DNA from: a virus
Lineage: Duplodnaviria > Heunggongvirae > Uroviricota > Caudoviricetes
DNA length: 34,387 nucleotides
IMG/VR virus record: IMGVR_UViG_3300045988_107065
Strand: one strand, 5' to 3'
In this document: positions 3,709 through 23,411 of the stretch, in pieces
Numbering within the stretch: the first letter of the stretch is position 1
How the letters are laid out: every line of letters begins with the position of its first letter
Position numbers and translations under genes: made by a program
Notes under the pieces: generated by a model
Seen by the model: only the letters and a program-made list of their open reading frames with translations
What the model was told of the DNA's origin: nothing
Databases searched by the model: none

Positions 3709-3711
3709 CTA

Positions 3712-4152: not shown

Positions 4153-7100
4153 CTATTTCATCTGCTCTTCAACTTTATTTAGTAACGGTGATATCGCCCA
4201 CAGGTTCTGAAAAGGTAGCATTTTACGGACCGCGTGGGTTTGCTGGCTGTCAAATTCTCCGTTAAGTACACCATTCGCAACCGTCGCGGCATCACCGCCA
4301 AGATCAAAGGTAGGACCAAGTAAAGCACCAATAGCATTACGACTCTGAAACCTTGATACCGGAGGCGCACCAAACATCGCGCCAAGACCAAACCTACCGC
4401 CGCTTATGTTCTCAACGGTATTCAGCGGCTCAGAGAGCCAGCCAAGCATTCCGCCCCGGTCGATCCCCTCTTTCACAAGGTTATTCCAGCTGTAGTCGAT
4501 ATCGCGACCGCTTAACTTCTGTTTCATCATATAGACCATTGAGCCAAGCGCAATCGTGCCAAGCGCACCAAGATAGAATGCAGCATCGCCCTGCTGGATA
4601 CCAGATACTAGCACCCTGTTATGCTGTGCGAAGATAAACGTTTTGAACTGCGTGATCATCTTCCAGCCTTCTTTACTAAAAAACAGCGGTGTATCACCTA
4701 CGCCAGGCGTTACAATCACTGAGTCTACATCTTTCAGCACTGCAGACTGGAAAATCTCTCTAGCGAAACGGTCATCCCACAGATGACTATGCCCGGTTAA
4801 CAGCCCGTCCATATCCTCTCCGTGCTTCCCGAATTGCTCCCCGATTCGACGCAGAACATCTTCATTGATGCCGACCTGTGCCATCTTCCGCATTTCACTT
4901 TTGGAGAGCGTGCCACCAGCAGAAACTTGGCGAGCCGCGTCAAGTATCCTCGACTGCACTATCATCCCGGACCATGATTTAAGTGCGCTGTTCCACTGAT
5001 TCATCAGCGTCCAGTTACCGAATTTCTGCGTCATCCAGTTCAGACCTCGCTCAGCGGCGCTTCTCCGGCTATAGGGGTCAGTAAGATCCGCTATAGCCTT
5101 TGTACGCGTAGACAGGACATAATCAAGCCCAACGGCCATTTCTCGCAAATCCCTGGTTGCAATTTTCACTGAGTCCATATTTTTAAGCATGCTTACCATT
5201 GGTCCGAGAGATTTTCTCAGGCCATGCTGCATCATCGGTCGCATCAGATCAGTTGCAGCGGAGACAGTCATTCCACCAAGCAAACGGAGGAAGTTAATAT
5301 TCCTAGCAACTCGCCCGGCACGAACAAAGAAACTGCGTGGATCTTGAGGTGCGCCGTAAGTACCAAGCAGTCGATCACGCATAGCCGTAATATCCCTAAT
5401 ATCAGCCTCCCGTTGCTTCTCAAGAACTGCACGTCGTTTAGGTGTTTTAGCCTCTTTTATTAGCCGGGTATATTCCTCACTAACCTGACGGATTTGCTCC
5501 CCCATATCTTTACGGCCAAACTGCGCAGTCAGCTCAATTTCTGGTGCCACCTGCCGGAGATAACTTTCCATGATGTAGTTAACATCTGATTCAAGAAAAT
5601 CTTCTATACGCTCATCAGGAATAAGCAGCGTTCTGCTTTTAGTGAAACCAGCCCGACCAACGAGTCTCTCTGGGATAATATCGGCTGGTACAAGCCCGGA
5701 AGGTGCGCCTATTATTTTATTCACGATCTCGTCAGCAGCGTCCTCTGCTTCCTCTCGGGATAGAGGCTCCATCTGCTTCAGTGCTCGTTCGCGGCTTGCA
5801 TTCAGCCTTGTGGTTGAATTTGCCCGTTTTTGCAGTCGGCGAAGCTCAGAACGATATTTCCGTGGATTATCCAGCAACTCCATATGGCGCTGATAGACAG
5901 GAAGCTCACTCTTTGCCTGCGCTATATCATCAAGGCGTGTTTTAAGGTCAGAGCTTTCTTTCATCATTCTTGCCTGAAGTTTTTCTGATGAAGTCTCGGC
6001 CAACTCTTTTTCTATTCTTGTAAGACGCGCCTGTGTGTCAGTCTCCTGAGATATAAGCTTATTTCGTTTATCCAGTTCTTCCATGAGTAGAATTTTTTTA
6101 CCAGACCATTTCTCCGCTTCAGCGATTTCACTAGCGAGAGCATCAGCGCGCGGTGCTGATTCCTCTGCAGTTTTTAGCAATGAATTTATCTTTTCAATTC
6201 GCTTACCTGCTTTGTCAGCACCTTTGGCACTAATCCCTTGTATCCAGTTGGCAATTCGCCCTCTGAATTCAGTGCGGTCGGAAAGTATCTTATCGAACTT
6301 ATAAATGCGGGGAAGATAACTTTTCGCCGTCACGACATCGATATCCTCAGGAAGGATCCCCAGTTCCTGCATACGGGCTTTTGTGGTCTCAAAAATGGGG
6401 CGGATTCTGGCGGCTGCTTGTGAAACCTCAGGAATATCACTCTGATCACCACGGCGCATAGCCATGCCAACAGCTTCATTGAAATCAATAAAGCTCATCC
6501 TCTTCACGCCGCGGGCGCTGACAGATTTGCTGTACTGCTGGTAAGCATCACGAGTAGCTTCCATCTGCTTATAAAGCATGGCATCGTATTGCTTAATCTT
6601 AGTCTCGACTGCCGTAAACGTAGCCAACCCCTCATCATTTTTGGCGAAGAAATAGTTATTTTCGGCAAGCTGCTGGTTAATCTGACGGGAAACAAGAGAT
6701 GGTGATTGCGCCAAGCGGCCAGCAGGAGTGACACTCAACGTTTTGTTAGCAAGTCCAAGTCCAGCGAGCTGTTCCTGATCGAGTGTGGTATTGAAAACCT
6801 GAGCTGCACCAATGCTTTGAGGAGAATCCATACCTCGCAAATGATTACCTACTGAGTTAACCACTGCCTCGCGCGCGCTAGGTCCAGCAAGTAGCTGTGC
6901 ACCAGCACCAAGGATCCCACCAACGAGAGCATCAATAACAACGTTCGATACGCTCTCCATCGGTGAGCGAGCTTCCTGAGTGGCCTGTAATGCGGCTTCT
7001 GATACTCCCCCACCAGCAGCATTCGCCAAGGCAAAACGCCCTGCCGTCTCAGCAATACTTCCTCCACGCGCTACCGCCCCTACAGGGATGAACATTGCAG

Positions 7101-7542
7101 CCACATTAACCGGGTCTATCATTCCCATTGCTAAGCTTGAAATAGTACCAGCACCACCCATTTCAGATAGATATTCTCTATCTGTTCTTTGCTTATCGAT
7201 TCGATGTTTAATTGCCATTGTTTCTTCAGGCGAACCGGAGTTGATAAACGAATCTGCAAAATCTTCATAGCCTTTAATATCTGCTGCATCGTTATCAAAT
7301 GGGTTATATCCTTCAACCCTGTCAAACTGACTGAAAGGAGCACTGGCAATAAAACTACCCAGCGTGTTATCTATACGAAATGCTGCTTGTCTAGACCTTT
7401 GAACGCGTTGATCACTGCTAAATGGGTTCACAGCAGAAAGCAAAGAAGGTGTTTCCATATAGAAATTACTGTCATCAGGTGCTGCTATTTGCTGAATATC
7501 CTCGCCAAGCAACTCTTTAGGATCCTGTTCATATATCGGCAT
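4153..7542 (-). CDS. Large internal virion/ejection protein (1129 aa) with long coiled-coil region (T7 gp16-like position)
   Basis: Size, Gly-rich N-terminus, E/K/R-rich coiled-coil segment, position last in the structural operon; start overlaps upstream stop (TAATG). Confidence 0.55.
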   Translation of the reverse strand: MPIYEQDPKELLGEDIQQIAAPDDSNFYMETPSLLSAVNPFSSDQRVQRSRQAAFRIDNTLGSFIASAPFSQFDRVEGYNPFDNDAADIKGYEDFADSFINSGSPEETMAIKHRIDKQRTDREYLSEMGGAGTISSLAMGMIDPVNVAAMFIPVGAVARGGSIAETAGRFALANAAGGGVSEAALQATQEARSPMESVSNVVIDALVGGILGAGAQLLAGPSAREAVVNSVGNHLRGMDSPQSIGAAQVFNTTLDQEQLAGLGLANKTLSVTPAGRLAQSPSLVSRQINQQLAENNYFFAKNDEGLATFTAVETKIKQYDAMLYKQMEATRDAYQQYSKSVSARGVKRMSFIDFNEAVGMAMRRGDQSDIPEVSQAAARIRPIFETTKARMQELGILPEDIDVVTAKSYLPRIYKFDKILSDRTEFRGRIANWIQGISAKGADKAGKRIEKINSLLKTAEESAPRADALASEIAEAEKWSGKKILLMEELDKRNKLISQETDTQARLTRIEKELAETSSEKLQARMMKESSDLKTRLDDIAQAKSELPVYQRHMELLDNPRKYRSELRRLQKRANSTTRLNASRERALKQMEPLSREEAEDAADEIVNKIIGAPSGLVPADIIPERLVGRAGFTKSRTLLIPDERIEDFLESDVNYIMESYLRQVAPEIELTAQFGRKDMGEQIRQVSEEYTRLIKEAKTPKRRAVLEKQREADIRDITAMRDRLLGTYGAPQDPRSFFVRAGRVARNINFLRLLGGMTVSAATDLMRPMMQHGLRKSLGPMVSMLKNMDSVKIATRDLREMAVGLDYVLSTRTKAIADLTDPYSRRSAAERGLNWMTQKFGNWTLMNQWNSALKSWSGMIVQSRILDAARQVSAGGTLSKSEMRKMAQVGINEDVLRRIGEQFGKHGEDMDGLLTGHSHLWDDRFAREIFQSAVLKDVDSVIVTPGVGDTPLFFSKEGWKMITQFKTFIFAQHNRVLVSGIQQGDAAFYLGALGTIALGSMVYMMKQKLSGRDIDYSWNNLVKEGIDRGGMLGWLSEPLNTVENISGGRFGLGAMFGAPPVSRFQSRNAIGALLGPTFDLGGDAATVANGVLNGEFDSQQTHAVRKMLPFQNLWAISPLLNKVEEQMK

Positions 7543-10289
7543 TATTTGCCCCCTGCGTATATATTGCTCGGAAGGTTATTGGCTGAACCATAACCGAATG
7601 GCTTGGTCAGATCTGGAGGAGTATATCCATCTTTATTGCTGAACTGCGGCAGCGGATTGCCTTCTCTCCGCACTCTAGCTTCATCAACACGCTGTTGCTG
7701 GAACTGAATGGTTTGCCTGTACATTGGAGATGTCAGCTGATCCGGCTTGAAACGAACAGGGAGACCATTTTCTCCAATATAATTTCTAGGTTCTATCGCT
7801 CCGTTTGCGTCAGGCTGTAAAACCATAACAGCATAACTCCTATCCCTTGCCGTAAGGCCATCAGAAACAAGTATTAAGTCCGTATCACTGCGAGGACCGC
7901 CAAAGGATTTTGATTTAAGCTCGCGTTTTTCCTGCTCCCACTGCCCCTGTATCCAGTTACCAGCACCATTATTTACTCCGTACAATGCCTCAGGTGCATA
8001 CTTCATAACCTCTGCTTTGCCATTAACCGTAGAAACTCCCCAGGTGGTTCTGATCATGGCATTGGTCATTTTCTCAGCCTGTTCTGCATCGCCGCCTGTC
8101 TGTACAAAGTTAGCATCGTAAATTGTCTGGTAATCTCGCTGATAGGCCGCATTTGATTTTCCTGGATCGGTAATATCCGGAGACCACGAACCAAAGGAAG
8201 TCAGACTGCTGGCGTTATTTTGTGCAGCAGTTGCCCTCGCCGCGACATATTTTTTGTCTCGCATGGCAGTAGAAAGCATCTGTTTCATTCGGTCATCCTG
8301 TTGGAACACCTGGCTGTAAGCCATATCAACAGCCTTATCCTCCGGCACGCCAGCGCGGGAATAATCGTAAACCTTGCCGTAAAATGCCATCGTACTTTTA
8401 TCAAGTGTTGCCGCTGCCGCCGGATTATTATCGAATAACTGACCGTAGAATTTTGCCATCGGGACAACCAGCGCAGGATCTCTTGATGTTGCTCCACTGT
8501 TAAGCATTGTTTTAACCTGAGTTGGTATCATGCCGCTTTTAGTTGTGACGGTGACCAGTGTATTGATGCTCTGCGGATCAGATATGGAAAACGAAGGCGC
8601 GATATCCTGCGCGAAATAACGGTCTACCGCTGCCTGATTGTTTTTGTCGTTCGGGTCCAGCGGGAAGTTATTTTGCATTGAAGACACGAATCTGTTTCTT
8701 CCCTGCTGAATCTCCCACTCCCTATCCATCTCTTTAAATTTGGCCTGCATTTTCTCCCAGCGTTGCTGGTTAGCTGCAAATCCAGGAGCGTTTGGATCCT
8801 GTGGACGTAAACGTTCAAGAATGTCTTGTCGTCCTTCTGGAGTGAGGTCTTTAGCGGCACCAATGACACCTCCATATTGTATCTGCGCCTGCATATCCTT
8901 CCACTTCATAGCGCCAATGCGCGGACCATTGGCCCGGATAAAATCGTCCTCAGAAGGTAACTTCTCAGGTTTCAATCCTTCATCAAGGGCTGAATATGCA
9001 TCTTTAACTACAGTGCTAAGCTGGTCCGCATACTGCTGGCGGAACTGATTTCTCAGCTCATTAGCCTGCCTCAATGCCTGTATTTGCATTTGAGGGCTCA
9101 TAGCATCAAATGCCGCATTGCCCGTATAACGCTTAGGTGAATCAAGGTTAGTTAGACCAAGGGCTGCCGAGATACCAGTTTCAAGCTGTTCGGTGCTATA
9201 AGGCATACTGCCATTTTCGTGTTTAATAATCCCAGCACATAAAGCAGCTAGTGTCTTTGGGTTAGAGATATCAAGCTGATCATTCTCCCCAACACCAAGC
9301 TCACCACACAATGCCCTAATATAAGCATCAGTATTATTACCATCACTAGCCGGAGCATAGCGATTAACAATCTCGCTAACGGTGTCATAGCCTTGACGCT
9401 GGTAAGACAACATATTTTTACCCAACGCGCGGATTCCATGCTCAGGAGTAGCAAACGTTGCAAAACGCCCATCGCTACCGATCTGACCTTCCCACGGGTT
9501 AGATTTGCTCGCTTCAATATTACCAGGGTTATTATTACGTAAACCACGAGCATCCAATGAATTACCATGTGATATTGCACGACTCACACCATCAAGATCC
9601 CCTGGCTCTCCATTAACCTGAAGAAACTCGTTGTATTTTTGAGCGATATTTCCTATCCATGCTTGCTGCCCCATTTGTTCCTTGAGCTGAGTTTTCTGCT
9701 GAACACGCCACTCATCAGGAAGCCCATGCGCATCAGCGTATTGATCAATAGATTCAAATCGCTGCTTGGCTAAATCGACAAATGCTCGGTTATCGCTATA
9801 TAGCCCCGCAGACTGAGTGACAGCCAATGCATTTCCTGACAAATACGTTTGATCTTGGAATTGCTGAAACTGCCCAACTTCATATCGACGTGCCTGATTG
9901 TAATAAGACTGCATAGACTGCTGGAGTTGAAAGGATAATTTATTCCTTTCCTCACTTTCAGGAATTGAGCCTAATAATGCCTGAGCCCTTTCCTGCATAT
10001 TTTTCATAACAGCGTCACTCAGACCAAGAGCGTTTTTACCCTGTTTAGAAATCAGCCCATTTTCAGGGTTGTTAATCTGGTCATCTGCAAATTGGTTAAA
10101 TTGCAGTAACGCCTCCTGTGCCATAGCAACATTCGCTTTCTGCCTGGCTTCACCATATGCCACCGCATACTGATCTGCGACATTCGCCAGCACCTGACCT
10201 GCCTGAGGAACATCGAAGGTCTGAAAACCACCGGTTTGCACACCACGACTTTGCACCTGGCGTCCGGATGTAGTAGGAACAACAGGCAT
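7542..10289 (-). CDS. Large internal virion protein (915 aa; T7 gp15-like position)
   Basis: Size and position; contains a conserved-looking segment NNPGNIEASKSNPWEGQIG...FATFATPEHGIRALGKN whose function I cannot assign with certainty. Confidence 0.5.
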   Translation of the reverse strand: MPVVPTTSGRQVQSRGVQTGGFQTFDVPQAGQVLANVADQYAVAYGEARQKANVAMAQEALLQFNQFADDQINNPENGLISKQGKNALGLSDAVMKNMQERAQALLGSIPESEERNKLSFQLQQSMQSYYNQARRYEVGQFQQFQDQTYLSGNALAVTQSAGLYSDNRAFVDLAKQRFESIDQYADAHGLPDEWRVQQKTQLKEQMGQQAWIGNIAQKYNEFLQVNGEPGDLDGVSRAISHGNSLDARGLRNNNPGNIEASKSNPWEGQIGSDGRFATFATPEHGIRALGKNMLSYQRQGYDTVSEIVNRYAPASDGNNTDAYIRALCGELGVGENDQLDISNPKTLAALCAGIIKHENGSMPYSTEQLETGISAALGLTNLDSPKRYTGNAAFDAMSPQMQIQALRQANELRNQFRQQYADQLSTVVKDAYSALDEGLKPEKLPSEDDFIRANGPRIGAMKWKDMQAQIQYGGVIGAAKDLTPEGRQDILERLRPQDPNAPGFAANQQRWEKMQAKFKEMDREWEIQQGRNRFVSSMQNNFPLDPNDKNNQAAVDRYFAQDIAPSFSISDPQSINTLVTVTTKSGMIPTQVKTMLNSGATSRDPALVVPMAKFYGQLFDNNPAAAATLDKSTMAFYGKVYDYSRAGVPEDKAVDMAYSQVFQQDDRMKQMLSTAMRDKKYVAARATAAQNNASSLTSFGSWSPDITDPGKSNAAYQRDYQTIYDANFVQTGGDAEQAEKMTNAMIRTTWGVSTVNGKAEVMKYAPEALYGVNNGAGNWIQGQWEQEKRELKSKSFGGPRSDTDLILVSDGLTARDRSYAVMVLQPDANGAIEPRNYIGENGLPVRFKPDQLTSPMYRQTIQFQQQRVDEARVRREGNPLPQFSNKDGYTPPDLTKPFGYGSANNLPSNIYAGGK

Positions 10290-10864
10290 CAGTAACCTCC
10301 TATTTTGAATCGGGAGTCAGAATTCATAAAACCTGAGTTAGATAGCATTGGCGTCCCACCACCAGATGTACTTCCTTTAGAGAACGGACTCCACGTCCCA
10401 CCAAACATCTGGTACGCACCGTATGCCTTCAGAGGCGCGGTGAGCAATGTTGTTGCTGCTCCCACATTCCCCTGTTTACGGGCTGAACTGGCTTCTGCTT
10501 TATAGTTGGCAGCCTGAACCTGATAACCGTAAGCCTCGCGTTGCGCGTTATTCACCGTCGTCAGCGAATCAAGAGCGCCAAACTGGGCTGTGTCGCCAAA
10601 TATATCCAGCGCGTTACCTGTAGATAAATCAGCGCCGGTAGCCCCCATTGTCGCCGCCTGTGTACCAAGCCGCTGTCGGGTCTCTCTGCGCCGTTGCTCA
10701 GCTTCAGCGTTACCTCTGTTTATTGCATCATTTGCCTGAGCTGTGGCTATATCTGCGTTCGCTTCTGCAACCTTCGAGGCATACTTTCCCTGTTGGTACT
10801 GGGTGTATGCCTGAATGCCACTCATGGCGAGCATTGCACCACCAGCAATAACCGGATCGCACAT
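10289..10864 (-). CDS. Internal virion protein (191 aa; T7 gp14-like position), Ala/Gly/Gln-rich
   Basis: Position and composition. Confidence 0.4.
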   Translation of the reverse strand: MCDPVIAGGAMLAMSGIQAYTQYQQGKYASKVAEANADIATAQANDAINRGNAEAEQRRRETRQRLGTQAATMGATGADLSTGNALDIFGDTAQFGALDSLTTVNNAQREAYGYQVQAANYKAEASSARKQGNVGAATTLLTAPLKAYGAYQMFGGTWSPFSKGSTSGGGTPMLSNSGFMNSDSRFKIGGY

Positions 10865-11328
10865 TATTTTCTCTCCATGTGAAATCTGTGGAAATTAAGA
10901 CCAAGAGCACCATAAGGCGCGGCTTCTTCAAGCCTGAATCCAAGCCAGTGCAGCCATGCTTTGGCAACATGGTTTCGCTCGTCGACGTAGTTTTCCAGGC
11001 GCGGATAAACTGCCAGCATCTGCTGCAATACAGGGCGGCAGTGGCGCAGAAATGTCTTCTGATATTTTTCAATACGGCTGGTTCCTACCAGCCAGGGCGT
11101 ACCATTGCCACCGATCATTGACGCCGGAGATACGCCAAACATGGTTACCAGTTCTCCGTTCGCAAATCCTGACCAGGCCATAGTCGCAGTGCGAAGACCA
11201 ACACGCAGCGCATCTTCGGTAGTCATCAGCGATACCGCATACAGTTCGTCAATATCAGCCTGACGAACATCCGGCAAAATCATCTGAAGATGCTCTTCGG
11301 TGGCGGGAATAATTTGAACATCGATCAT
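10864..11328 (-). CDS. Hypothetical virion-associated protein (154 aa)
   Basis: Position within the structural operon, translationally coupled to neighbours. Confidence 0.35.
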   Translation of the reverse strand: MIDVQIIPATEEHLQMILPDVRQADIDELYAVSLMTTEDALRVGLRTATMAWSGFANGELVTMFGVSPASMIGGNGTPWLVGTSRIEKYQKTFLRHCRPVLQQMLAVYPRLENYVDERNHVAKAWLHWLGFRLEEAAPYGALGLNFHRFHMERK

Positions 11329-14709: not shown

Positions 14710-14733
14710 ATACACTCCTGCAATAAAGGGGCC

Positions 14734-14751
14734 GAAGCCCCTTGTCTGATC
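14734..14751 (-). terminator. Intergenic hairpin (possible attenuating terminator)
   Basis: aaggggc-cgaa-gcccctt. Confidence 0.35.
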
Positions 14752-14759
14752 CGCGAGGC

Positions 14760-15095
14760 TTACACGCCCAGTTCTTTACGCTTATCTGCGATCTTCTCGC
14801 GGAGCGTTTCAGCTTTGGCGTTATGGTGTGGCTTCTCGTTAAAGAGCAATTCGTACTCTTCACGGAGCTTATCCAGTTCACCATCATCTGACACATCGTT
14901 GATGATTTTGGTGCTGGTTGCTGCCATTGACACCTTTACTGCAACTTTTGCTTTTGCCTGTCTGGCTGCATCGTTAACAGGTTCCAGTGCGCTACCAGGC
15001 TCACCTTCGTATTCGATTTCTGCCCCCTCCGGCCACAGTGTGTTATGGATATGAGAGAGGCGCAGAACGCGGTATCTTGGTTTCTCACCTGACAT
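14760..15095 (-). CDS. Hypothetical structural protein (about 111 aa)
   Basis: ATG at 15095 with AAGGTGA 5 nt upstream. Confidence 0.4.
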   Translation of the reverse strand: MSGEKPRYRVLRLSHIHNTLWPEGAEIEYEGEPGSALEPVNDAARQAKAKVAVKVSMAATSTKIINDVSDDGELDKLREEYELLFNEKPHHNAKAETLREKIADKRKELGV

Positions 15096-15105
15096 CGATA
15101 TCACC

Positions 15106-15543
15106 TTAACCAGTTACTTTTGAGCGGATCGGGTACGGCGTATTGGCATCAACATCCAGACTGATACCCGCAGTGAATTTGCCGGCCGTTAGTGGGCCAG
15201 TTGCGACGGAGTAGTTAACACGCAGATATCGCTGAACACCGGCTGGCACCTTTGCAGAAACAACTCGCTTACCTGCTGTCAGGGTGGCCTTTGCCAACGC
15301 ACCACTATCATAAATAGTGGTCCAAGAGCTGTTATTCTCACTCGTCTGCAACTGGATGTTTACAGTTGCCTCACCACTTGCCGTGGCGGCTTCGTTAACC
15401 AGCCCCCAAAACTCAAGCGGGTAACCCACACCGATATCGCGACGGTTTCCATCAATTGGACCGAGATCGATTACGTCAGTAGAAGCCGCGGTATCAGTTA
15501 CCGCCTGTGCTTCGGAGAACATCAACAGTTTGTCGGTGATCAT
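15106..15543 (-). CDS. Hypothetical head protein (145 aa), possible decoration/cement protein
   Basis: Position immediately downstream of the major capsid gene; beta-rich sequence. Confidence 0.35.
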   Translation of the reverse strand: MITDKLLMFSEAQAVTDTAASTDVIDLGPIDGNRRDIGVGYPLEFWGLVNEAATASGEATVNIQLQTSENNSSWTTIYDSGALAKATLTAGKRVVSAKVPAGVQRYLRVNYSVATGPLTAGKFTAGISLDVDANTPYPIRSKVTG

Positions 15544-15562
15544 CTTCTTTCTCCATTAGTGG

Positions 15563-15582
15563 GTCTGTTACGACCCACAGGT
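15563..15582 (-). other. Stem-loop downstream of the major capsid gene
   Basis: gtgggtc-tgttac-gacccac. Confidence 0.35.
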
Positions 15583-15594
15583 TAATAACAGGCG

Positions 15595-16587
15595 TTACAC
15601 CACGCGGGCTTCTGTTTCCAGAAGCGCATCAGTTTCACGGATTGGTACACCACGGAATGACGTCCACCACTCGCCTTCAGTCTCTTTTACGCTAATCGCC
15701 AGAGATGTTTTCTCCAGAGACTGCAGATCAAGAGCCTGGCCTACAGTGCGGTTCATGTAGAACACCGGGCGACCCATGCCACGGTTTGGAATGCGATGCA
15801 GTGCTTTAACCATCAACTTCGCAATATTTGCGGCAGAGGAAGGTTCTGAAAGATTGCTGACATCGATGTTTGCAATGCGAACAACATAACGCCAGTCACG
15901 CAGAGCAAGTCCGTTATCCCATTTGTAATGGGTGCGATAGCCTTCGTACTTGCCGCCATTAGCATCTTCCAGTGTCACCTGGCCTTTATCTTCCATCTTG
16001 ATGCCAGCCTTCTGCCCTTTCGGGAAGATGCCATGCACGGTGTTTTCGCCCCACACTACTAACCAGATTGAGGTGTTATCTGTACCCGTGCCACCAGCAT
16101 CAATGATGTTCTGAGCATTACCCGCAGACAGGCTGGAATAGCGGGAGGACAGTCCCATAAACTGCTGAGGGTTAACGCTGGAATCACCATAAAACAGTGT
16201 CTGCGCCATCTGCTGATTCATCGCTTCAATAAATGCGCGGTCTTCAGACAGGCGGAATTCGGCGGTATTACCGTTCAGATCAGCCAGTGACTTATCGACT
16301 TCAGCATAGGTTTCCAGCATTCCAACGGAATCGGTGACCTGCACTGTGGTTGATTTGCTTGGCTGTACGCCATAGTTCAGCAAACGCCAGGTGGCTGAAG
16401 GTAAACCAGAACGAATGGTGGTTCGGTGTCCGGTAGGAAGGTTCCCTTCGACAAAAGGCATATCCTGAAGGATCGGGTTAGTTTGACCGAGAAGCTCGAT
16501 AATCTTATCGACTTTCCCGTTTGGATCGACGCGCTTACCCCAGTCAGCCAGCGTTAGCGCAGTTAAGCCTTTAACAGCCATTGTCAT
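15595..16587 (-). CDS. Major capsid protein (330 aa)
   Basis: Position after the scaffold gene and size; no sequence-level family assignment possible by eye. Confidence 0.6.
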   Translation of the reverse strand: MTMAVKGLTALTLADWGKRVDPNGKVDKIIELLGQTNPILQDMPFVEGNLPTGHRTTIRSGLPSATWRLLNYGVQPSKSTTVQVTDSVGMLETYAEVDKSLADLNGNTAEFRLSEDRAFIEAMNQQMAQTLFYGDSSVNPQQFMGLSSRYSSLSAGNAQNIIDAGGTGTDNTSIWLVVWGENTVHGIFPKGQKAGIKMEDKGQVTLEDANGGKYEGYRTHYKWDNGLALRDWRYVVRIANIDVSNLSEPSSAANIAKLMVKALHRIPNRGMGRPVFYMNRTVGQALDLQSLEKTSLAISVKETEGEWWTSFRGVPIRETDALLETEARVV

Positions 16588-16595
16588 TTCCTCTC

Positions 16596-17291
16596 TTATT
16601 TGCCATAGAGCACTTCGGCCGCACTACGCTGGCCTTCATTACCACCGGTGACCATGCCATCTTCAGACATCGCCTTTCCGATTTTCACGAACGTTTTGAC
16701 CAGATCAGGGTGATTACCCAGTCCGGTGGTGTTCAGATATTCTTTGAGTTCAGGTGTCCCGAACTGGTCAAGCGCACGCTGTGCGGCGCTAAGGTTAGAA
16801 ATCAACTTGTCGCCACCGATTTCTTTGTCAGCTTTTACATCCGCAGCCCACTGCTCGGTTGTTTTCTGCCAGGCTTCTGCCTGGCGCTGCTGAACACCTG
16901 CCAGAATCTTCGGATAAGCATCAACCAGCTTTTGCGCTTGCTCGTTGGTCAGGTTTAGTTCTCGCGCCACCGGCTCGAATTCCTTCAACGCTTCTGTATC
17001 CAGCTCTACGCCTTCGGCAGCCTGAAACTCGTACTTCTCAGGCGCACCCTCTGGTTTATCGCCGCCCTTTTTTTCATCCTGCTTATCGTTTTCAGGCTTT
17101 TTGTCATCAGCAGGTTTATCGCCATCAGCAACAGGTTGTGGCTTATCACCTTCCGGTTGTGATGGATCACCAACTGGAGCAGGGTTATCACCTGCAGGCG
17201 CTGACGGTTCTGACGCAGCCGGAGCTGCTCCACCATCGACTGGTTGCTCATTGCAAAGACGGCGATACAGCAAACGCTCAAATAAATTCAT
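16596..17291 (-). CDS. Scaffolding protein (acidic, Pro/Asp/Lys-rich, helical C-terminus)
   Basis: Composition and position between portal and capsid; ATG at 17291 with AGGAG 5 nt upstream. Confidence 0.55.
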   Translation of the reverse strand: MNLFERLLYRRLCNEQPVDGGAAPAASEPSAPAGDNPAPVGDPSQPEGDKPQPVADGDKPADDKKPENDKQDEKKGGDKPEGAPEKYEFQAAEGVELDTEALKEFEPVARELNLTNEQAQKLVDAYPKILAGVQQRQAEAWQKTTEQWAADVKADKEIGGDKLISNLSAAQRALDQFGTPELKEYLNTTGLGNHPDLVKTFVKIGKAMSEDGMVTGGNEGQRSAAEVLYGK

Positions 17292-17293
17292 GA

Positions 17294-17590
17294 TCACTCC
17301 TGTTCACTGGCCTCTTTGGCCATCTTCAAATACTGTTCAGGGCAATGCGCCATAACGCGCTGAAACAGTTCCAGCGCCAGATTGCGTTGCCCCTCATTAA
17401 ATGCCATTGCCATAGAGTCCATCGGTGAGATAGCGGAAAACACACGGCCTTTCTCCAGCACCGACCAGACAACGCGACGCCCCTGTTCACTGCTCATGAC
17501 AAAGCGAATGTCATCAATTTCACGCTGTGCCATGTCACATTGCTTACGGGCGTTTTCTTCTTTCAGTTGATCATCTTCGTAATCTGTCAT
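17294..17590 (-). CDS. Hypothetical protein (98 aa) between portal and scaffold
   Basis: ORF translationally coupled to portal. Confidence 0.4.
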   Translation of the reverse strand: MTDYEDDQLKEENARKQCDMAQREIDDIRFVMSSEQGRRVVWSVLEKGRVFSAISPMDSMAMAFNEGQRNLALELFQRVMAHCPEQYLKMAKEASEQE

Positions 17591-19266
17591 TGTGATTGCC
17601 CACCCTGACCACTAACTGCATTCGCCATAGCTGACAAAACACTCGGCTCCGAAGTTTTAGCTTCGCTTAGCGTCTTGGCACCCTGTGCCGCCGCCATCCC
17701 CATCGCCATCATTTGTTGCTGCTGTTGTTGCTGTGCCCGTTGCTGGCGAGCCTGCTCAACCTGTTCCTGCGGAACAATGACGGTTGGAGACACTCCGGAC
17801 ATATCAGCGAATGCATCGATCGCCTGATCAACGTTGAGTTTGTCGAGAGCTTCTGGTTTCGCTTGCGCAAGTTGACCAATGAAGTTAACCGTGGACGCCA
17901 GACTGGACAGGCCGATAGACTTCTGCGCCTGAGCCATGACGGAAATGTATTCGACCTTCAGGGGCATACCTTCCATCGCGTCAGGCGGTGGCGGCAGCAT
18001 GTTTTTACGCACCATCATCGAGAAAGCGCGGTCAATGAGAGGGTTAAGACATTCGTCGTTCAGACGCTCCAGAACCGGCCCCAACATCAGAAGCTTTTCT
18101 TCTTTCATTTCGATCACTGCTTCAACAGGCATCGAGCGGGTATTGATGTTCTGCAACATCATGAACAGATCGACAAAGTAGGCGCTGTTAATGATTTGGC
18201 GGGTGTCCTGAATGTCTGCTACCAGATCTGCTGTACTGGGGTTAACCAGATAAGCAGGCCTGAAACCATCCTGACCAGTAATCTGATCGATATACGTGAT
18301 GTCGCCAGGAAGAAGAGAGGCGCGCTGATTCTTGAGGGAAGTCGGAGCAACCATCGGCGGATTGGTGGCTTTATCAATCAACTGCGACTTGCGCTTCTGG
18401 AGAAGCTGCAATGCCTTAACAGGTCCAAGCGCCAGCATACCCGGGCATGATGATCCATAAACATCTTCGCCGTTAACTTCCCAGCGCGGAGCCATAATTG
18501 GAAACTCATCGAATCCGGACTCACGCAACAACTTGTCGTTATCGCCGCCAACCTCGTAATAAACCGATTTGAATGGCTTGTTCTTGCTATCCAGCTTCGA
18601 TGTATCGCGGTCAATGTTCGGGTAAACCGAATGCATAACTTCAATCCACTTCTCGTAGGTTCCGCTTTCCCACATGCTTTTTACGGATTCGCTGACGTTA
18701 TTTAGCCCGAACTCCTGAACAAGCTGACGAACAGTCATAGAGAACTTGCGAAAACAGGTGTCCACACTGCCACGAGGTGAGTTAGCCAGGTAGTAACTGC
18801 CTATCGGGAATGGCATTGTGCGAATGATGTCCTCGTCATCCTCCAGCACTGCCATTGCACCAGTGCTGTATGTGCCGAGGCTTCCGTATAACTGCGGCAG
18901 CGACTGATAGAGATTCGACTTATTGAACATATCGTTCATGCGGTTCTGCACCGCCTCAAGCCACAACTTAACAGGGCCATAATCCATCATTTCAGGATCT
19001 GGCGTAGCCAGGCGAAACCACGGACGCGCGGGGCTTGTGATGCCTGACATCATGCCGCTGGCGAGAGTGCGCGCCGCCATAGTCCCGGTCGAATCAATAA
19101 TGCGTGTATTGCGTCGATCGTTACGGTTGACCTCAGAAGTCAGAAAGCGGGAACCACGCGGGTTGATGTAATCACTCAACTCGCGCCAGTGCGGCTCGAA
19201 CGACTGACGCTCGCTTTCAAGTTGTGCGAACTGTTTGTTCAATCGCTCTTTAGTTGTTTCCGCCAT
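17587..19266 (-). CDS. Portal (head-to-tail connector) protein, podovirus type
   Basis: 559 aa; N-terminus and Gln/Ala/Met-rich C-terminal tail resemble T7 gp8-family connectors; downstream of terminase. Confidence 0.75.
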   Translation of the reverse strand: MAETTKERLNKQFAQLESERQSFEPHWRELSDYINPRGSRFLTSEVNRNDRRNTRIIDSTGTMAARTLASGMMSGITSPARPWFRLATPDPEMMDYGPVKLWLEAVQNRMNDMFNKSNLYQSLPQLYGSLGTYSTGAMAVLEDDEDIIRTMPFPIGSYYLANSPRGSVDTCFRKFSMTVRQLVQEFGLNNVSESVKSMWESGTYEKWIEVMHSVYPNIDRDTSKLDSKNKPFKSVYYEVGGDNDKLLRESGFDEFPIMAPRWEVNGEDVYGSSCPGMLALGPVKALQLLQKRKSQLIDKATNPPMVAPTSLKNQRASLLPGDITYIDQITGQDGFRPAYLVNPSTADLVADIQDTRQIINSAYFVDLFMMLQNINTRSMPVEAVIEMKEEKLLMLGPVLERLNDECLNPLIDRAFSMMVRKNMLPPPPDAMEGMPLKVEYISVMAQAQKSIGLSSLASTVNFIGQLAQAKPEALDKLNVDQAIDAFADMSGVSPTVIVPQEQVEQARQQRAQQQQQQQMMAMGMAAAQGAKTLSEAKTSEPSVLSAMANAVSGQGGQSQ

Positions 19267-19280
19267 TTCAATGACTCCGG

Positions 19281-19487
19281 TTACTGACCAAGCAGCGTTT
19301 TACCGCTGGTATTAGCGGTTGATGTGTCACCCTGAGAACCGGTAAGCAGCGTAGAACTACGACCAGCAGCAGCGCGACGGCGACGAGTTTCTTCGTCGCG
19401 GGCATCAACAACGGCGGCATCCTGCTCCTGTGGTGCTGCCTGAACTTCTGGTGTTGCAGGCACTGACGGTGAGCTACCCATGCACAT
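19281..19487 (-). CDS. Small hypothetical protein (68 aa), Ala/Arg-rich
   Basis: ATG with GGAG 8 nt upstream, immediately upstream of portal. Confidence 0.35.
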   Translation of the reverse strand: MCMGSSPSVPATPEVQAAPQEQDAAVVDARDEETRRRRAAAGRSSTLLTGSQGDTSTANTSGKTLLGQ

Positions 19488-19577
19488 ATCAATGACTCCG
19501 TACGCAATTAAATTATTACCAATTTAACCACATATGATTTATTTATCGTAGACAGTTGACATTTAACGCACGAATTA

Positions 19578-19592
19578 TTACCTTTCAGGTAA
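19578..19592. promoter_or_regulatory. TTACC-N5-GGTAA palindrome (site 4) just downstream of a TTGACA hexamer (19556-19561)
   Basis: attaccTTTCAggtaag. Confidence 0.45.
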
Positions 19593-19914
19593 GCAAATGG
19601 TTCATTCCGGTTATTAACCTGACTGGCTTGTCGTTAAATTGAACAGGTGGAGTGAGCTTTTATTTTGAGCAGTACGGCGTATGGCACATGCGCCGATAGC
19701 GGTCTGGATACGTTTAAGGGGCACCCTCCCTTGCTCGGGCAAACGAACCAGGTAGCCGGAATGTGCAAGTCGAGCGGTTTTATTCCGCGCACGGGGATTC
19801 ACCATCCCGGCGATTCGGTGTGACGCCTCGGAAGAGACGAGGGTACAACGATGAGAGCATTTATGGAGCCGCGACAAAGTGTGGCGCCTTAACAGGCTAA
19901 GTGCTCTCAGCGTT

Positions 19915-19991
19915 GTGGCATTAGCTCAGTTGGACAGAGCAACCGCCTTCTAAGCGGTTGGTCGCAGGTTCGAATCCTGCATGCCACGCCA
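19915..19991 (+). tRNA. tRNA-Arg (anticodon UCU)
   Basis: Cloverleaf folded by hand: acceptor GTGGCAT/ATGCCAC, D-arm GCTC/GAGC, anticodon stem ACCGC/GCGGT with loop CTTCTAA, T-arm GCAGG-TTCGAAT-CCTGC, discriminator G and encoded CCA; 77 nt. Confidence 0.9.
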
Positions 19992-20034
19992 GAATCACGC
20001 CTAAGGACCGTGATGCCAGAAGTTCCAGGGGCTT

Positions 20035-20077
20035 GGCGGTGATGGTTTCCCTTGAAGGACTATCACCGCCCTTTTTA
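20035..20077 (+). terminator. Rho-independent terminator downstream of the tRNA
   Basis: 9 bp stem ggcggtgat/atcaccgcc followed by CTTTTT. Confidence 0.6.
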
Positions 20078-20154
20078 CAGCAGGACGCCATTGCGATGAC
20101 TTCATGCTGTAAACCAGTACAGCCACGGAAGGCATAACTCATTGCTTCCAGTTC

Positions 20155-20178
20155 GCCCGGTTCGCCGGGCATTTTTTT
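20155..20178 (+). terminator. Second rho-independent terminator
   Basis: gcccgg-ttcg-ccgggc followed by ATTTTTTT. Confidence 0.65.
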
Positions 20179-20189
20179 AAGGTGAGATT

Positions 20190-20546
20190 ATGAACGACCA
20201 GCAAATCGAAAAAGAAATCGTTGAGAAAGGCAAAACCGCTCCGCGAGTTACGCCTCAATATATCGAAAGCATCATTCTTGAAGAGCATTTCTTTACTGCT
20301 TATGACGGCATTCGTGCTGCCAATATGGGCGTTGGCGATTCATGGACAGCGCATAAATCTACAGACCTCCTGACTTTCTGCGTATTGGTACTGAAGAATG
20401 GCTTCACCGTCACCGGAGAGAGTGCCTGTGCAAGTCCGGAAAATTTTGATGCAGAAATTGGTCGGAAGATTGCCCGGCAGAATGCTGTAAACAAAATCTG
20501 GATGCTCGAAGGTTACTTGCTGAAGCAGAAGTTAAGCGAGCAATAA
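20190..20546 (+). CDS. Hypothetical protein (118 aa) adjacent to the phage tRNA
   Basis: ATG with AAGGTGAG RBS; no family recognised. Confidence 0.55.
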   Translation: MNDQQIEKEIVEKGKTAPRVTPQYIESIILEEHFFTAYDGIRAANMGVGDSWTAHKSTDLLTFCVLVLKNGFTVTGESACASPENFDAEIGRKIARQNAVNKIWMLEGYLLKQKLSEQ

Positions 20547-20563
20547 CACCGTGACATGTCACA

Positions 20564-20590
20564 AACAGCCAGCCGATGAGCTGGCTTTGT
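20564..20590 (+). terminator. Hairpin terminator between convergent genes
   Basis: agccagc-cgatga-gctggct followed by TTGTTTT. Confidence 0.5.
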
Positions 20591-20636
20591 TTTATCCTCA
20601 TCAGAGGATATCAACGACATTATCCCCACTAGCGGA

Positions 20637-22112
20637 TTAAGCATAGGGATCGTAATCTGTGATGGCCTTGCCTTGCTGGTTCTGCTGCCCGGGAATTCGC
20701 AGACGCTTTGACACAGGGAAAGCAAACGTCAGCAGTAGCGCATCGCCTTTACCAGGAGAACGCCCAAGCCGCTCCTTGATATCTTCCTTCGGTTCGATAA
20801 CGATTTTACCGTCCACTCGAACTTTATACTCTGCCGCCGACAGGTCGTCCGCTGTTTCCTGGTCATCCAGCATCCCGCCCAGCCTCAGCCATGTCTTGCA
20901 TGAGTTGAACATCTCCCCACGCTTGTTGAGCATCTGCGGGTCAGTAGACGCGCCACCGAACGGAACAAGTTGCCATGTGCGCCCCCAACCATCACCGATT
21001 GACTTCAGACCGGTACCGTAACCGAAGTCGATGAACACCGCGTCAGCCTGATACTGGTCTTCAAAGTCAGCGATACGCTTCGCCATAATCAGATCGTCGG
21101 TGGTCTTGTTACCAGTCCATAGCACCTTACTGTGCAGCCCCTGCCGCAGGTATATCACAGCGTCATCAACGCCGGAGTATGCCGGGTCAACGCCGATTAT
21201 CACCGGAGCATGCGCCACCTGCGCAGCGGTTACCACCCGTTTCATTGCCTCATCAGTAAGACCGGTAGGGATAAACTGCAATTCAGATGCATCAGGGAAT
21301 ATGCCGCGCACACGGATTTTAACGAAGTCGCTATCTTCCCCGTAGTCATCAACCCATTTCTGCAACTGCTGTTTGTTAGTGCCTTCCACCGTCCGGCTGT
21401 CAATCTGCGCAGTTTTCCAGCGGTGTTTATATTTGCGGAAACATTCGCGGAAACGCCCGGTGTTACGTGTAGGGTTTCCGAATGCCACCCAGATAATCTC
21501 AGTGTCTTCGTCCGTCAGCGCACCCTCTGCTACCTCCCACACCAGATCGGCAATGTTGGATGCTTCGTCGAATACCACGATGATGCGTTTGCGCTCGTTG
21601 TGTAGTCCGGCGAATGCCTCAGTGTTGTGCTCAGACCAGGGGATTGCGTCAGCTCGCCACCGCTTGTCGTGCCCAGGGTCATTGCTGTACATCGCGGTAG
21701 CGGTACAGGTAAACCAGTCTTTCGTGATAGCAAGGTTCGACCACTTGATAATTTCCGGCCAGGTCTTCGTTCGTAGCTGGTTGTCGGTGTTGGCGGTCAC
21801 CACGACCTTACAATCCTCGCAAGTGGACATGCCCCAGTTGATCAGCATTGAGATGAATGCGGATTTACCAATACCGTGACCCGAAGCGCGTGCCAGCATA
21901 AGCGGCTGATAGCGCGTCTCTGGATTCTGCAGGTGATCACGTATCTCTCGGAACGCATCAGCCTGCCACTGACGTGGACCGGTGGCATGTGCTAATTCAG
22001 TCCCCTCTTCCCCCCACGGGAACGCATAGAGGGCATAGCCAAGCGGATCGTGAGTGAACCCTGCAATATCCTCGATCAACTGCTCTTCAGGAGATAACGC
22101 TGTATCTGTCAC
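20637..22112 (-). CDS. Terminase large subunit
   Basis: Walker A (ARASGHGIGKS), Walker B (IIVVFDEAS), C-terminal nuclease-like region; 491 aa; 4 nt overlap with upstream small subunit. Confidence 0.9.
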   Translation of the reverse strand: MTDTALSPEEQLIEDIAGFTHDPLGYALYAFPWGEEGTELAHATGPRQWQADAFREIRDHLQNPETRYQPLMLARASGHGIGKSAFISMLINWGMSTCEDCKVVVTANTDNQLRTKTWPEIIKWSNLAITKDWFTCTATAMYSNDPGHDKRWRADAIPWSEHNTEAFAGLHNERKRIIVVFDEASNIADLVWEVAEGALTDEDTEIIWVAFGNPTRNTGRFRECFRKYKHRWKTAQIDSRTVEGTNKQQLQKWVDDYGEDSDFVKIRVRGIFPDASELQFIPTGLTDEAMKRVVTAAQVAHAPVIIGVDPAYSGVDDAVIYLRQGLHSKVLWTGNKTTDDLIMAKRIADFEDQYQADAVFIDFGYGTGLKSIGDGWGRTWQLVPFGGASTDPQMLNKRGEMFNSCKTWLRLGGMLDDQETADDLSAAEYKVRVDGKIVIEPKEDIKERLGRSPGKGDALLLTFAFPVSKRLRIPGQQNQQGKAITDYDPYA

Positions 22113-22705
22113 TGATTACCATCCTGACGTTCTTTGAGTCGCTTCCTGGCTGCCGCTATGCGATCAGCAATTGTCACATTCACATTAACATCCAGGCGTT
22201 CTTTGAATGCGTTGACGTCGACGTGCTTACCAATCAGTTCGAGGTTCTTCACCTTGTCAGGCCATTTAATTTTTTTGAGGATTGTCTCTATCGAATCCTC
22301 GTTCATGTTCATGATGGTCGATGACAGATCAAAGCCACTAAGCGTAGTGCGCCAGATTTTCGGCCACTCACGGATTGGTTTAAGGCTCCCATCGTCGTTG
22401 AGGATATCGATCACGTCCATCTGGTCGATCTCCACCAGGCGCATGAGAACGTAATCAGCACTGACGCGCATTCGTTTGTTGCGCTCCTCCATCAACTCGG
22501 CAATCCGTTTTTGAATGCGTTCATCGCGCATCATGACACTGGCTTTAACTGCCGCTGTATTTGGGGAGAATCCTGCGTTAATCGCTGCCTGAGTCTGGTT
22601 TTCAGGCGTTTTGATGTATGACTGGCAATAAGCCTCCTGCATTGCTGTGAGCGGCTTAAATTGCGTTGATTTGCGTTTATAGGTTTTAGGTTCAGCAGGC
22701 ATCAT
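22109..22705 (-). CDS. Terminase small subunit
   Basis: Conserved small-terminase N-terminal region (AYCQSYIKTP...AAINAGFSPNTAAVKASVMMRDERIQ); probable ATG at 22705 (track ORF extends to a TTG at 22783). Confidence 0.75.
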   Translation of the reverse strand: MMPAEPKTYKRKSTQFKPLTAMQEAYCQSYIKTPENQTQAAINAGFSPNTAAVKASVMMRDERIQKRIAELMEERNKRMRVSADYVLMRLVEIDQMDVIDILNDDGSLKPIREWPKIWRTTLSGFDLSSTIMNMNEDSIETILKKIKWPDKVKNLELIGKHVDVNAFKERLDVNVNVTIADRIAAARKRLKERQDGNQ

Positions 22706-22823
22706 AACCACCGTGGTAATAGTTACCGTTGTGGTAATAGTACCATGCAAAATAAAGCCGCCATAGTTGGCGGCAGTATTCAAAACCCATCAAATTCATC
22801 ATGCATAATCTACTCGTAACATG

Positions 22824-23162: not shown

Positions 23163-23189
23163 CAATATTTACCTTTATCGCGAACATAC

Positions 23190-23411
23190 TTAGCTGTGTG
23201 TTGCCGATGTGCGGAGATTCTCTTCTATCAATTCCACGCATTCTGACCGACGAACAAATAATTCGTCTCCGTTATGAATTACGACATAGCCGTAAGCGGT
23301 TTTACGCATCACATCGAACTCATCCCATACGGAAATACCGCACTCTGCTAACGAGCAATCCAAATAATCTTCCGGATGCTTGTCGGTGTTATTAATGATG
23401 CGAATCCTCAA
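23190..23411 (-). CDS. Hypothetical protein (73 aa)
   Basis: TTG start with AAGGTG 6 nt upstream. Confidence 0.35.
   Translation of the reverse strand: MRIRIINNTDKHPEDYLDCSLAECGISVWDEFDVMRKTAYGYVVIHNGDELFVRRSECVELIEENLRTSATHS

Follow-up and report, generated by a model that had tools for sequence, protein, structure and literature searches.

The DNA analysed here is a stretch of 34,387 nucleotides, IMG/VR record IMGVR_UViG_3300045988_107065, which in its full length is called the window in the following. The window almost certainly covers about 85% of the genome of a temperate Escherichia coli podophage which by its sequence belongs to the genus Uetakevirus (the phiV10/epsilon15 group). The type of phage is already known: judged by its matches it is a usual member of a well-described genus, and near-identical copies are present in public phage records as well as in more than 100 finished E. 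coli chromosomes. An earlier note on this DNA, made from the letters alone, had seen in it a mosaic genome combining lambda-like regulation and replication with a T7/epsilon15-style virion module. Taken as something special, the word mosaic is an overstatement. On comparison with its relatives the lambdoid arm beside a T7-related virion core presents itself as the normal Uetakevirus design and not as a new hybrid. Since the same collinear combination is found in phiV10 and EC.W1-9, what was called mosaic is the standard architecture of the genus; a lysogeny/replication arm together with a T7-related virion core is the defining layout given for Uetakevirus in the ZX5 paper (PMC9782041).

The assignment is carried first of all by DNA identity. 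In a megablast search of the phage records with the region 4153-22783 the best overall match was EC.W1-9 (97.5% identity, 95% coverage), a phage without classification by the International Committee on Taxonomy of Viruses (ICTV). Its DNA is 96-99% identical over most of 4153-34387, and about 86% of the window can be aligned to it at 82-99%. With the same region the O157 typing phages 9 and 10, ZX5, PAS61, TL-2011b and phiV10 gave about 65% coverage at 97-98% identity, and Tyrion and epsilon15 gave 77-81% identity. Megablast and DNA alignment with phiV10 (NC_007804) showed 97.5-98% identity across 10383-22823 and 98% across 25818-34387; the right arm (22784-34387) matches phiV10 at 98% identity over 81% of its length. 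Altogether phiV10 aligns at 89-98% to about 23.8 kb, or 69%, of the 34.4 kb of the window. According to the taxonomy lines of the records the ICTV genus Uetakevirus consists of two species, phiV10 and epsilon15.

The kinship extends to the proteins of the virion. The late operon is an uninterrupted minus-strand run from 22783 down to 4153, and all of its genes occur in the list of open reading frames (ORFs) at the sizes given below in amino acids (aa). The gene order which the earlier note had read from the small terminase subunit (TerS) and the large one (TerL) to the internal proteins is thereby confirmed in size, strand and family. The tail fibre which it had included in 4153-22783 lies outside this region, and only its N-terminal anchor is present (last line).

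22109-22783, minus strand: TerS, 224 aa (PF03592, E 1.4e-29; 100% identical to phiV10)
20637-22112, minus strand: TerL, 491 aa (phrog_2, E 1e-52; 99.6% identical to phiV10)
17587-19266, minus strand: portal, 559 aa, T7 gp8 / Head-tail_con family (PF12236, E 1.6e-187; PDB 8ck0_A, E 6e-179)
17294-17590, minus strand: Bbp19-like protein, 98 aa (PF25181, E 4.9e-17)
16596-17297, minus strand: gp6-like protein between portal and capsid, 233 aa (phrog_458, "protease")
15595-16587, minus strand: major capsid protein, 330 aa, of BPP-1/epsilon15 type (PF20911 "Major capsid protein GP7", E 3.8e-149)
14760-15543, minus strand: two small head-region proteins, 145 aa and 114 aa (Bbp16 family; epsilon15 gp9-like)
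14386-14715, minus strand: predicted capsid staple, 109 aa, epsilon15 gp10 family (PF21628 Gp10-like, E 7e-52; 44% identical to epsilon15 gp10)
13781-14389, minus strand: tail adaptor/connector, 202 aa, T7 gp11-equivalent (PDB 8ck1_E "Connector Protein", E 2.9e-26)
11328-13781, minus strand: tail nozzle, 817 aa, T7 gp12-equivalent (PDB 8ck1_A "Tail Nozzle", E 2.2e-220)
10864-11328, minus strand: internal virion protein, 154 aa (phrog_308, E 9.2e-63)
10289-10864, minus strand: T7 gp14-family internal virion protein, 191 aa (PF24072 T7_gp14, 33.8 bits against a cut-off of 27)
7542-10289, minus strand: internal/ejection protein, 915 aa, with a lytic transglycosylase domain at about 245-400 (phrog_1044, E 0)
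4153-7542, minus strand: internal/ejection protein, 1129 aa (phrog_342, E 6.4e-235, profile positions 192-1227)
36-767, minus strand: tailspike N-terminal anchor and first receptor-binding residues, cut by the contig end (phrog_5662 and others, "tail fiber/spike")

In BLASTP comparisons phiV10 has collinear counterparts, 96-100% identical, for 13 structural proteins from TerS onwards and for residues 1-163 of the gp14-like protein; with epsilon15, in the same order, the identity of the structural proteins is 36-94%. The suspicion of an epsilon15/phiV10-like temperate podovirus, which had been voiced from protein sizes, is borne out by these identities. Neither a tape measure nor a tail tube or sheath gene was found among the ORFs of the window, and the structural module is thus that of a podovirus.

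The three closest reference genomes differ from the window in distinct ways. phiV10 has the gene order of the whole window in common with it, the integrase, the repressor, RecT, P and the attP core, and also the tRNA-Arg and the two small RNAs C4 and isrK. It differs, however, in its own three-gene ejection cassette (gp18, 837 aa; gp19, 600 aa; gp20, 824 aa) in place of the 915-aa and 1129-aa genes, in the island at window 2243-4152 and several genes of the ea region (23216-25817), and in the tailspike anchor, which is only 66% identical. EC.W1-9 (PP445227; bioRxiv 10.1101/2024.06.28.601134) carries the same 915-aa and 1129-aa cassette; it lacks window 14387-14710, that is the gp10 staple gene, carries in place of window 3239-4152 a 283-aa gene which follows the 1129-aa gene, and differs in the ea region and in window 20179-20712. 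epsilon15 (NC_004775) shows the same order of virion genes and the same capsid and staple families. Here TerL (94.5%), the nozzle (87.5%, gp12), the adaptor (84.6%, gp11) and the portal (80.5%) are well conserved, whereas the capsid (43%), the staple (44%) and the Bbp16-like protein (36%) are more diverged; by BLASTP the 1129-aa protein does not match its ejection proteins gp16 and gp17, and its first 24 kb have no match to C4 or isrK.

Judging from its adaptor and nozzle the tail is a short tail made of a dodecameric adaptor and a hexameric nozzle, the type solved for Carin-1. This phage of Cobetia marina (8cjz, 8ck0, 8ck1) is the nearest relative for which portal, adaptor, nozzle and tailspike anchor have been solved, the matches ranging from E 1e-26 to 1e-220, although it is a marine phage of another host and the kinship exists on the protein level only. 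Entry 8ck1 was assigned to Carin-1 via the Dpo31 chain which it has in common with crystal entries described in PMC13317679; the ejection proteins of Carin-1 were not resolved (PMC11440229). The adaptor belongs to phrog_394 and phrog_9239, "tail tubular protein", and the nozzle is 98% identical to phiV10 gp15. We equate the two with T7 gp11 and gp12 because of the names in the Carin-1 structure and because the RefSeq note on epsilon15 gp11 cites an HHpred match to T7 tubular protein A. They are the two genes which the earlier note had labelled "tube A-like" and "tube B-like".

The tailspike anchor is 66% identical to the N-terminus of phiV10 gp25 and 70% to that of epsilon15 gp20 over about 165 aa, and it also matches the N-terminus of the Carin-1 tailspike Dpo31 (E 4.5e-33). 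It is because of the Carin-1 structure that we regard it as functionally equivalent in binding to the tail. In the genus the first ~205 aa of phiV10 gp25 are conserved as anchor (PMC10408124). The tailspikes would attach via this N-terminal anchor, while the O-antigen-specific C-terminal domains would be exchangeable. A T7 gp17-like N-terminus, as had been proposed, could not be substantiated: the match to the T7 gp17 family (Pfam PF03906) was restricted to residues 135-161 and reached 17.1 bits with a cut-off of 25.2, and none of 120 homologues of the anchor carried PF03906 in precomputed Pfam assignments. The AlphaFold2 model of the anchor, made from a 20-sequence alignment, had a mean predicted local distance difference test score (pLDDT) of 47 and was too poor for a fold search.

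TerS and TerL (20637-22783, minus strand) stand at the start of the late operon and are, on their family matches, a pair of small and large subunits in the P22/Sf6 style; a sequence search of the PDB with TerL gave no match. The portal is 98.9% identical to phiV10 gp7 in BLASTP. For the capsid protein the PDB matches were BPP-1 3j4u_A (E 3.6e-128), 8cjz_Y (E 4.6e-87) and epsilon15 gp7 3j40_A (E 7.5e-85). By these relationships the capsid is of HK97 fold and BPP-1/epsilon15 type, with a staple of the gp10 kind and a Bbp16-like protein as accessory proteins. The 145-aa protein (15106-15543, minus strand) falls into the Bbp16 cement-protein family (PF21190, E 1.8e-47), and the 114-aa protein into phrog_590, which is epsilon15 gp9-like and has no named family. 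Searching ten structural proteins against NCBIfam returned nothing above threshold. We observed that both a Bbp16-family protein (cement in BPP-1) and a gp10-family staple (decoration in epsilon15) are encoded, the capsid being closer to BPP-1 (3.6e-128) than to epsilon15 (7.5e-85). As a separate observation, the staple gene carried by epsilon15, phiV10 and the window (14387-14710) is gone in EC.W1-9, around position 14611-14619 of the EC.W1-9 genome; either this viable phage has really lost the gene, or its assembly is in error.

The 233-aa protein between portal and capsid had been taken for the scaffold from its position, and the databases say otherwise: the family is labelled "protease/peptidase" by PHROGs and NCBI in thousands of database records. 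We detected no protease domain in it, nor any match in Pfam, NCBIfam or the PDB. Its N-terminal ~95 residues are of low complexity and rich in Pro, Asp and Lys, and the AlphaFold2 model is all-alpha with a disordered N-terminus, a result which with a mean pLDDT of only 45 is suggestive only. With modest confidence we consider the protein most likely a scaffolding protein, because it has no protease match, a low-complexity N-terminus, an all-alpha model, albeit of low confidence, and the fitting position. The "peptidase" label of the family would then probably be a propagated annotation error.

The virion module differs from phiV10 mainly in the internal proteins, which in these phages are presumed to be packaged on the portal inside the head and to be ejected, forming a trans-envelope channel for DNA entry; the model is drawn from T7 and the phiM1 ejectosome. 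Three such proteins of 191, 915 and 1129 aa had been recognized before and are present, and a fourth of 154 aa (10864-11328) had been missed. The latter falls into phrog_308, as does T7 gp13 (E 1.1e-42). In the 915-aa protein residues 247-399 match PDB 9vvp_L (E 5e-35) and the endolysin 7q47 (E 3.6e-15). It is 44% identical to epsilon15 gp15 and phiV10 gp18 in the first ~500 aa only, the transglycosylase domain included. Its size had been cited as reminiscent of epsilon15 and phiV10, which does not hold: the counterparts are smaller (phiV10 gp18, 837 aa; epsilon15 gp15, 842 aa), and the sequences differ too. We also considered this protein as a candidate tape measure and rejected it, since the match to phrog_2276 is limited to the transglycosylase region (194-410) and tube and sheath genes are missing.

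The 1129-aa protein shows no BLASTP match to the proteins of phiV10 (gp19 and gp20 included), epsilon15 or T7, and no meaningful match in the PDB (best E 0.5). T7 gp16, however, falls into the same PHROG (phrog_342). We built a hidden Markov model (HMM) of the family from the best 150 of 5520 representatives of an exhaustive profile search and ran it on a database of 50 sequences, where it matched phiV10 gp20 (E 2e-10) and, in two collinear stretches, T7 gp16 (E 1.1e-8). By these profile matches the 1129-aa protein belongs to the T7 gp16 family as a distant member; it lacks the N-terminal transglycosylase domain. As the HMM finds both T7 gp16 and phiV10 gp20, each of the two cassettes ends with a large core protein distantly related to gp16.

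In the DNA alignment the match to phiV10 ends at window position 10383, which corresponds to codon ~161-163 of the gp14-like gene, and the 191-aa protein is 98.8% identical to phiV10 gp17 over residues 1-163 and diverges thereafter. Within the virion module this is the one genuine mosaic junction. Beyond it phiV10 has a cassette of three genes (837, 600 and 824 aa) and the window one of two genes (915 and 1129 aa); EC.W1-9 and the prophage of E. coli GN02461 have the two-gene cassette in common with the window at 97-98% identity. Among 5426 complete E. coli genomes the two-gene cassette is present in 119 (at least 80% coverage) compared with 317 for the phiV10-type cassette, and relatives which are 57-79% identical occur in Serratia, Pectobacterium, Rahnella, Yersinia, Pantoea and Salmonella. 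Given these counts and the relatives in Enterobacterales the two-gene cassette is therefore a common alternative allele and not a rarity. No paper on it was found, the literature not having been searched for the cassette specifically. We judge it an evenly balanced proposition that otherwise near-identical phiV10-like phages swap their ejection apparatus as one unit, which would start at codon ~161-163 of the gp14-like gene and take in everything up to the end of the final core gene. The unit would exist in two forms, a T7-like one with two large proteins (915 aa with the transglycosylase, and the 1129-aa gp16 relative) and the phiV10/epsilon15 one with three.

Several points weigh against the placement in Uetakevirus and against the reading of the virion core given here. 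By the ICTV rule members of a genus have about 70% or more nucleotide similarity to each other over the genome, and the 69% of the window which align to phiV10 lie right at this threshold. The window is incomplete by about 5-6 kb, so that an exact whole-genome similarity of the VIRIDIC type is not computable; the C-terminus of the tailspike, any O-antigen-modifying gene and the lysis cassette are not part of it. Adaptor, nozzle and the 915-aa protein fall into PHROGs other than those of T7 gp11, gp12 and gp15. An hhalign comparison of the tailspike anchor with T7 gp17 residues 1-200 gave a probability of 1.1%, and that of the 1129-aa family with T7 gp16 gave 15% (E 0.0018) over the C-terminal ~110 residues with a shallow alignment (Neff 1.7). 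Moreover, the scaffold role of the 233-aa protein, the function as an ejectosome and the control of the antirepressor gene by the small RNAs are things that we infer. Finally, the three large ejection proteins after gp14 which are characteristic of phiV10 and epsilon15 are not found in the window; since the alternative cassette occurs in otherwise phiV10-like phages and prophages, we treat this as variation within the group and not as a reason for exclusion.

A part of these points would also fit a genuinely new hybrid phage, or a new genus, which arose by a recent joining of a lambdoid early region to a T7-like virion module. Lambda P, RecT, the integrase and the repressor switch do stand beside a T7-family portal and relatives of gp13, gp14 and gp16, and only about 69% of the window align to phiV10. 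The same collinear combination, however, is present at 96-99% identity in phiV10, EC.W1-9, ZX5, PAS61, TL-2011b and hundreds of E. coli chromosomes, it was described years ago for epsilon15 and phiV10, and the parts which do not align (ejection cassette, accessory island, ea genes) are known to be variable. We therefore regard such a hybrid as highly improbable, and the window as a phiV10-like Uetakevirus.

The ends of the contig require separate consideration. Positions 1-33 of the window read ACACTCTTTCCCTACACGACACTCTTCCGATCT, which we take to be the Illumina TruSeq universal adapter with one mismatch, and the homologous prophage sequence of GN02461 diverges from the window exactly there. 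These 33 bases are an artefact and not phage DNA. The apparent stop codon of the tailspike gene at 12-14 lies inside the adapter, so that the end of the 251-aa ORF (12-767) is artefactual too; the GN02461 homologue continues in frame at this place and is a full-length tailspike of 729 aa with identical layout. We also considered the ORF 12-767 as a split adaptor-type tail fibre and rejected this, because the stop is in the adapter and full-length homologues read on in frame. Many homologues of the anchor in the databases are "partial" proteins at contig ends, and assemblies are therefore prone to interruption at the passage from the conserved anchor to the variable receptor-binding part. Thus the contig is broken in the tailspike gene at one side and ends at the att core at the other.

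34371-34387, no strand assigned: att core, 17 bases (reverse complement of attgagtgggaatgatt)

This core adjoins the integrase gene and equals the published attP. The sequence attgagtgggaatgatt is the attP core of phiV10, epsilon15 and ZX5, which integrate at the 3′ end of guaA (PMC9782041). In the window phage the tyrosine integrase would likewise act at the 3′ end of guaA. The homologous prophage of GN02461 adjoins yfgI, the neighbour of guaA on the E. coli map. We note in passing that a contig break at the att core is to be expected if integrated and excised forms are both among the reads.

The adapter, together with the frequent breaks of contigs of this phage group in the tailspike gene, could be taken as a sign that the contig is a chimera assembled from reads of different prophages. 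Yet every junction of the window recurs in finished genomes: the 4153-10383 cassette is joined to phiV10-like genes in EC.W1-9 and GN02461, and 3239-4152 stands beside the 1129-aa gene in SJ2D and 13 other complete genomes. The adapter itself touches only the last 33 bases. An assembly artefact of this kind thus seems very unlikely to us, and the window can be read as one continuous Uetakevirus genome up to the adapter.

With T7 the window has in common the order portal, adaptor, nozzle, gp13, gp14, large core proteins and tail fibre, the Pfam families of portal and gp14, and the PHROGs of gp13 and gp16. The 915-aa protein in the position of gp15, however, belongs to another PHROG than T7 gp15, and no similarity between the two was detected. 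In contrast to T7 the phage of the window is temperate and has a tailspike instead of a fibre, its terminase genes lie upstream of the portal and not at the right end like T7 genes 18 and 19, its capsid belongs to the BPP-1/epsilon15 family without a BLASTP match to T7 gp10A, and the transglycosylase is located in the protein at the gp15 position whereas in T7 it forms the N-terminus of gp16. A phage RNA polymerase gene, which the earlier note had proposed to look for outside the window, is not among the ORFs of the window and is not annotated in the complete genomes of phiV10 and EC.W1-9; without such an enzyme the host polymerase would transcribe all genes. A T7-like prophage of the Autographiviridae with its own RNA polymerase gene outside the window, which the relatives of portal, gp13, gp14 and gp16 in the order of T7 genes 8-17 (portal to tail fibre) might suggest, has a practically negligible probability, as the complete genomes of phages 97-98% identical to the window are devoid of an RNA polymerase gene, the terminase genes precede the portal, the capsid has no BLASTP match to T7 gp10, and the missing ~5-6 kb hold the remainder of the tailspike and the lysis genes in the relatives.

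We now turn to the lysogeny and replication arm of the window, in which the following features were found.

22824-28282, minus strand: rightward early operon (Pfam and PHROG matches; 98% DNA identity to phiV10 over 25818-34387)
26088-26888, minus strand: lambda P-family helicase loader (PF06992, E 1.5e-56)
26870-27685, minus strand: replication initiator with HTH_36 winged helix and DnaT domain (Pfam)
28052-28282, minus strand: regulator in the Cro position, 76 aa (divergent from the repressor)
28437-29021, plus strand: repressor, 194 aa, with two helix-turn-helix (HTH) motifs (PF01381 and YdaS/HTH, phrog_8 and others; phiV10 gp40)
29315-32735, plus strand: leftward early operon with PDDEXK exonuclease (273 aa), RecT (322 aa), AlpA, PerC and MT-A70 methyltransferase (Pfam)
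32930-34180, minus strand: tyrosine integrase with P4-type arm-binding domain (PF13356, PF00589, PF22022)
1303-1378, plus strand: isrK-like small RNA (Rfam gathering threshold, 77.9 bits)
1403-1488, plus strand: C4 antisense RNA (RF01695, gathering threshold, 77.7 bits; 48 bases upstream of the Ant ORF)
1536-2231, plus strand: Bro-N / Ant-type antirepressor (PF02498, E 2.3e-21; phrog_130 "anti-repressor Ant", E 3.7e-63)
2378-4152, both strands: accessory island with four small ORFs of 193 aa (plus), 77 aa (plus), 152 aa (minus) and 146 aa (plus) (PHROGs of unknown function only)

The integrase, the P-type replication protein and RecT, all noticed before, have their Pfam matches in this arm and are phiV10's own at 98%. 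The proposed O/P replication pair stands in its P half only: the initiator gave no match to Phage_rep_O, the lambda O family, and carries a DnaT domain. Its N-terminal 157 aa do match "O-like" PHROGs (E 3e-19), more weakly than phrog_1032. Replication would proceed with this DnaT-domain initiator and a DnaB loader of the lambda P type. The rightward operon also encodes a DUF1064/resolvase-like protein, an HNH protein, Ead/Ea22 and a 113-aa protein adjoining TerS, which falls into phrog_536, "transcriptional regulator", and has no Pfam domain. No match to an N or Q antiterminator family was obtained with the proteins of the window. As a side observation the 202-aa HNH ORF of the ea region (25012-25620, minus strand) weakly matches the Zorya HNH nuclease ZorE in PADLOC (E 3.5e-10); the match probably reflects a shared HNH domain, or the ORF is a homing endonuclease.

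Of the lambda-like repressor switch the divergent arrangement of repressor and 76-aa regulator was confirmed, and a repressor of the CI type was not: no S24 peptidase (autocleavage) domain is among its Pfam matches, and an Ant gene with C4 and isrK is present instead. A promoter-like site (1268-1296) and a terminator-like site (1359-1372) lie near isrK and C4, and phiV10 carries the same pair unannotated at 20278-20463 (minus strand). Because the repressor lacks an autocleavage domain, induction most likely proceeds via the Bro-N/Ant antirepressor under control of C4 and isrK and not by RecA-mediated cleavage of the repressor. The neighbouring C4 and isrK-type RNAs would keep the expression of Ant low, as in immI of P1/P7. 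Compared with lambda, the window thus has a similar divergent pair of repressor and Cro-position gene, an initiator with a P-type loader, a RecT-type recombination operon, an integrase adjoining att and ea-type accessory genes; it differs from lambda in the DnaT domain of the initiator, in the repressor without S24 and in Ant with C4/isrK, which resemble P1, P7 and P22.

The accessory island, with the antirepressor on one side and the last ejection-protein gene on the other, varies among the relatives, where it holds a YafO toxin, DUF4760 or a 283-aa gene. Its ORFs gave no match in PADLOC or Pfam. Two of them, 3250-3708 (minus strand) and 3712-4152 (plus strand), stand back to back with their starts 3 bases apart. 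The segment 3239-4152 is missing from phiV10, EC.W1-9 and GN02461 and present in 14 complete E. coli genomes, SJ2D included.

Between TerL and the portal a small unit runs antisense to the late genes.

19915-19991, plus strand: tRNA-Arg, anticodon TCT (UCU), which reads AGA (ARAGORN; Rfam tRNA, 73.3 bits)
20190-20546, plus strand: 118-aa protein of the N4 gp49 / Sf6 gp66 family (PF13876, E 1.7e-34)

The tRNA had been noted before as a member of the late gene order; it is there, on the strand opposite to the operon. phiV10 carries it too, unannotated. AGA codons are used at an average of about 2 per 1000 in E. coli. In the late genes their frequency is 5.8 per 1000, and they are unevenly distributed: there are none from TerS to the Bbp16-like protein (the capsid included) and none in the adaptor, and the genes for the staple, the gp9-like protein, the nozzle and the core proteins have 6-18 per 1000.

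To sum up, the window can be filed as a phiV10-like Uetakevirus prophage or phage contig of E. coli, which is of little importance beyond correct annotation. The group is of practical interest for its O-antigen-specific tailspikes, and some of its members modify the O-antigen. For annotators there are a few by-products: the unsupported "peptidase" label of the gp6-like protein, C4/isrK and tRNA-Arg unannotated in phiV10-type genomes, two interchangeable ejection cassettes, and an adapter at the contig start which leads to a false stop codon. If the exchange of the ejection cassette as a unit should be undescribed, it would offer a natural swap experiment on which part of gp14 must evolve together with portal and nozzle and which with the ejection proteins of the periplasm and the inner membrane. 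If true, the swap may reflect adaptation to the host envelope or to defences which target the ejected proteins.

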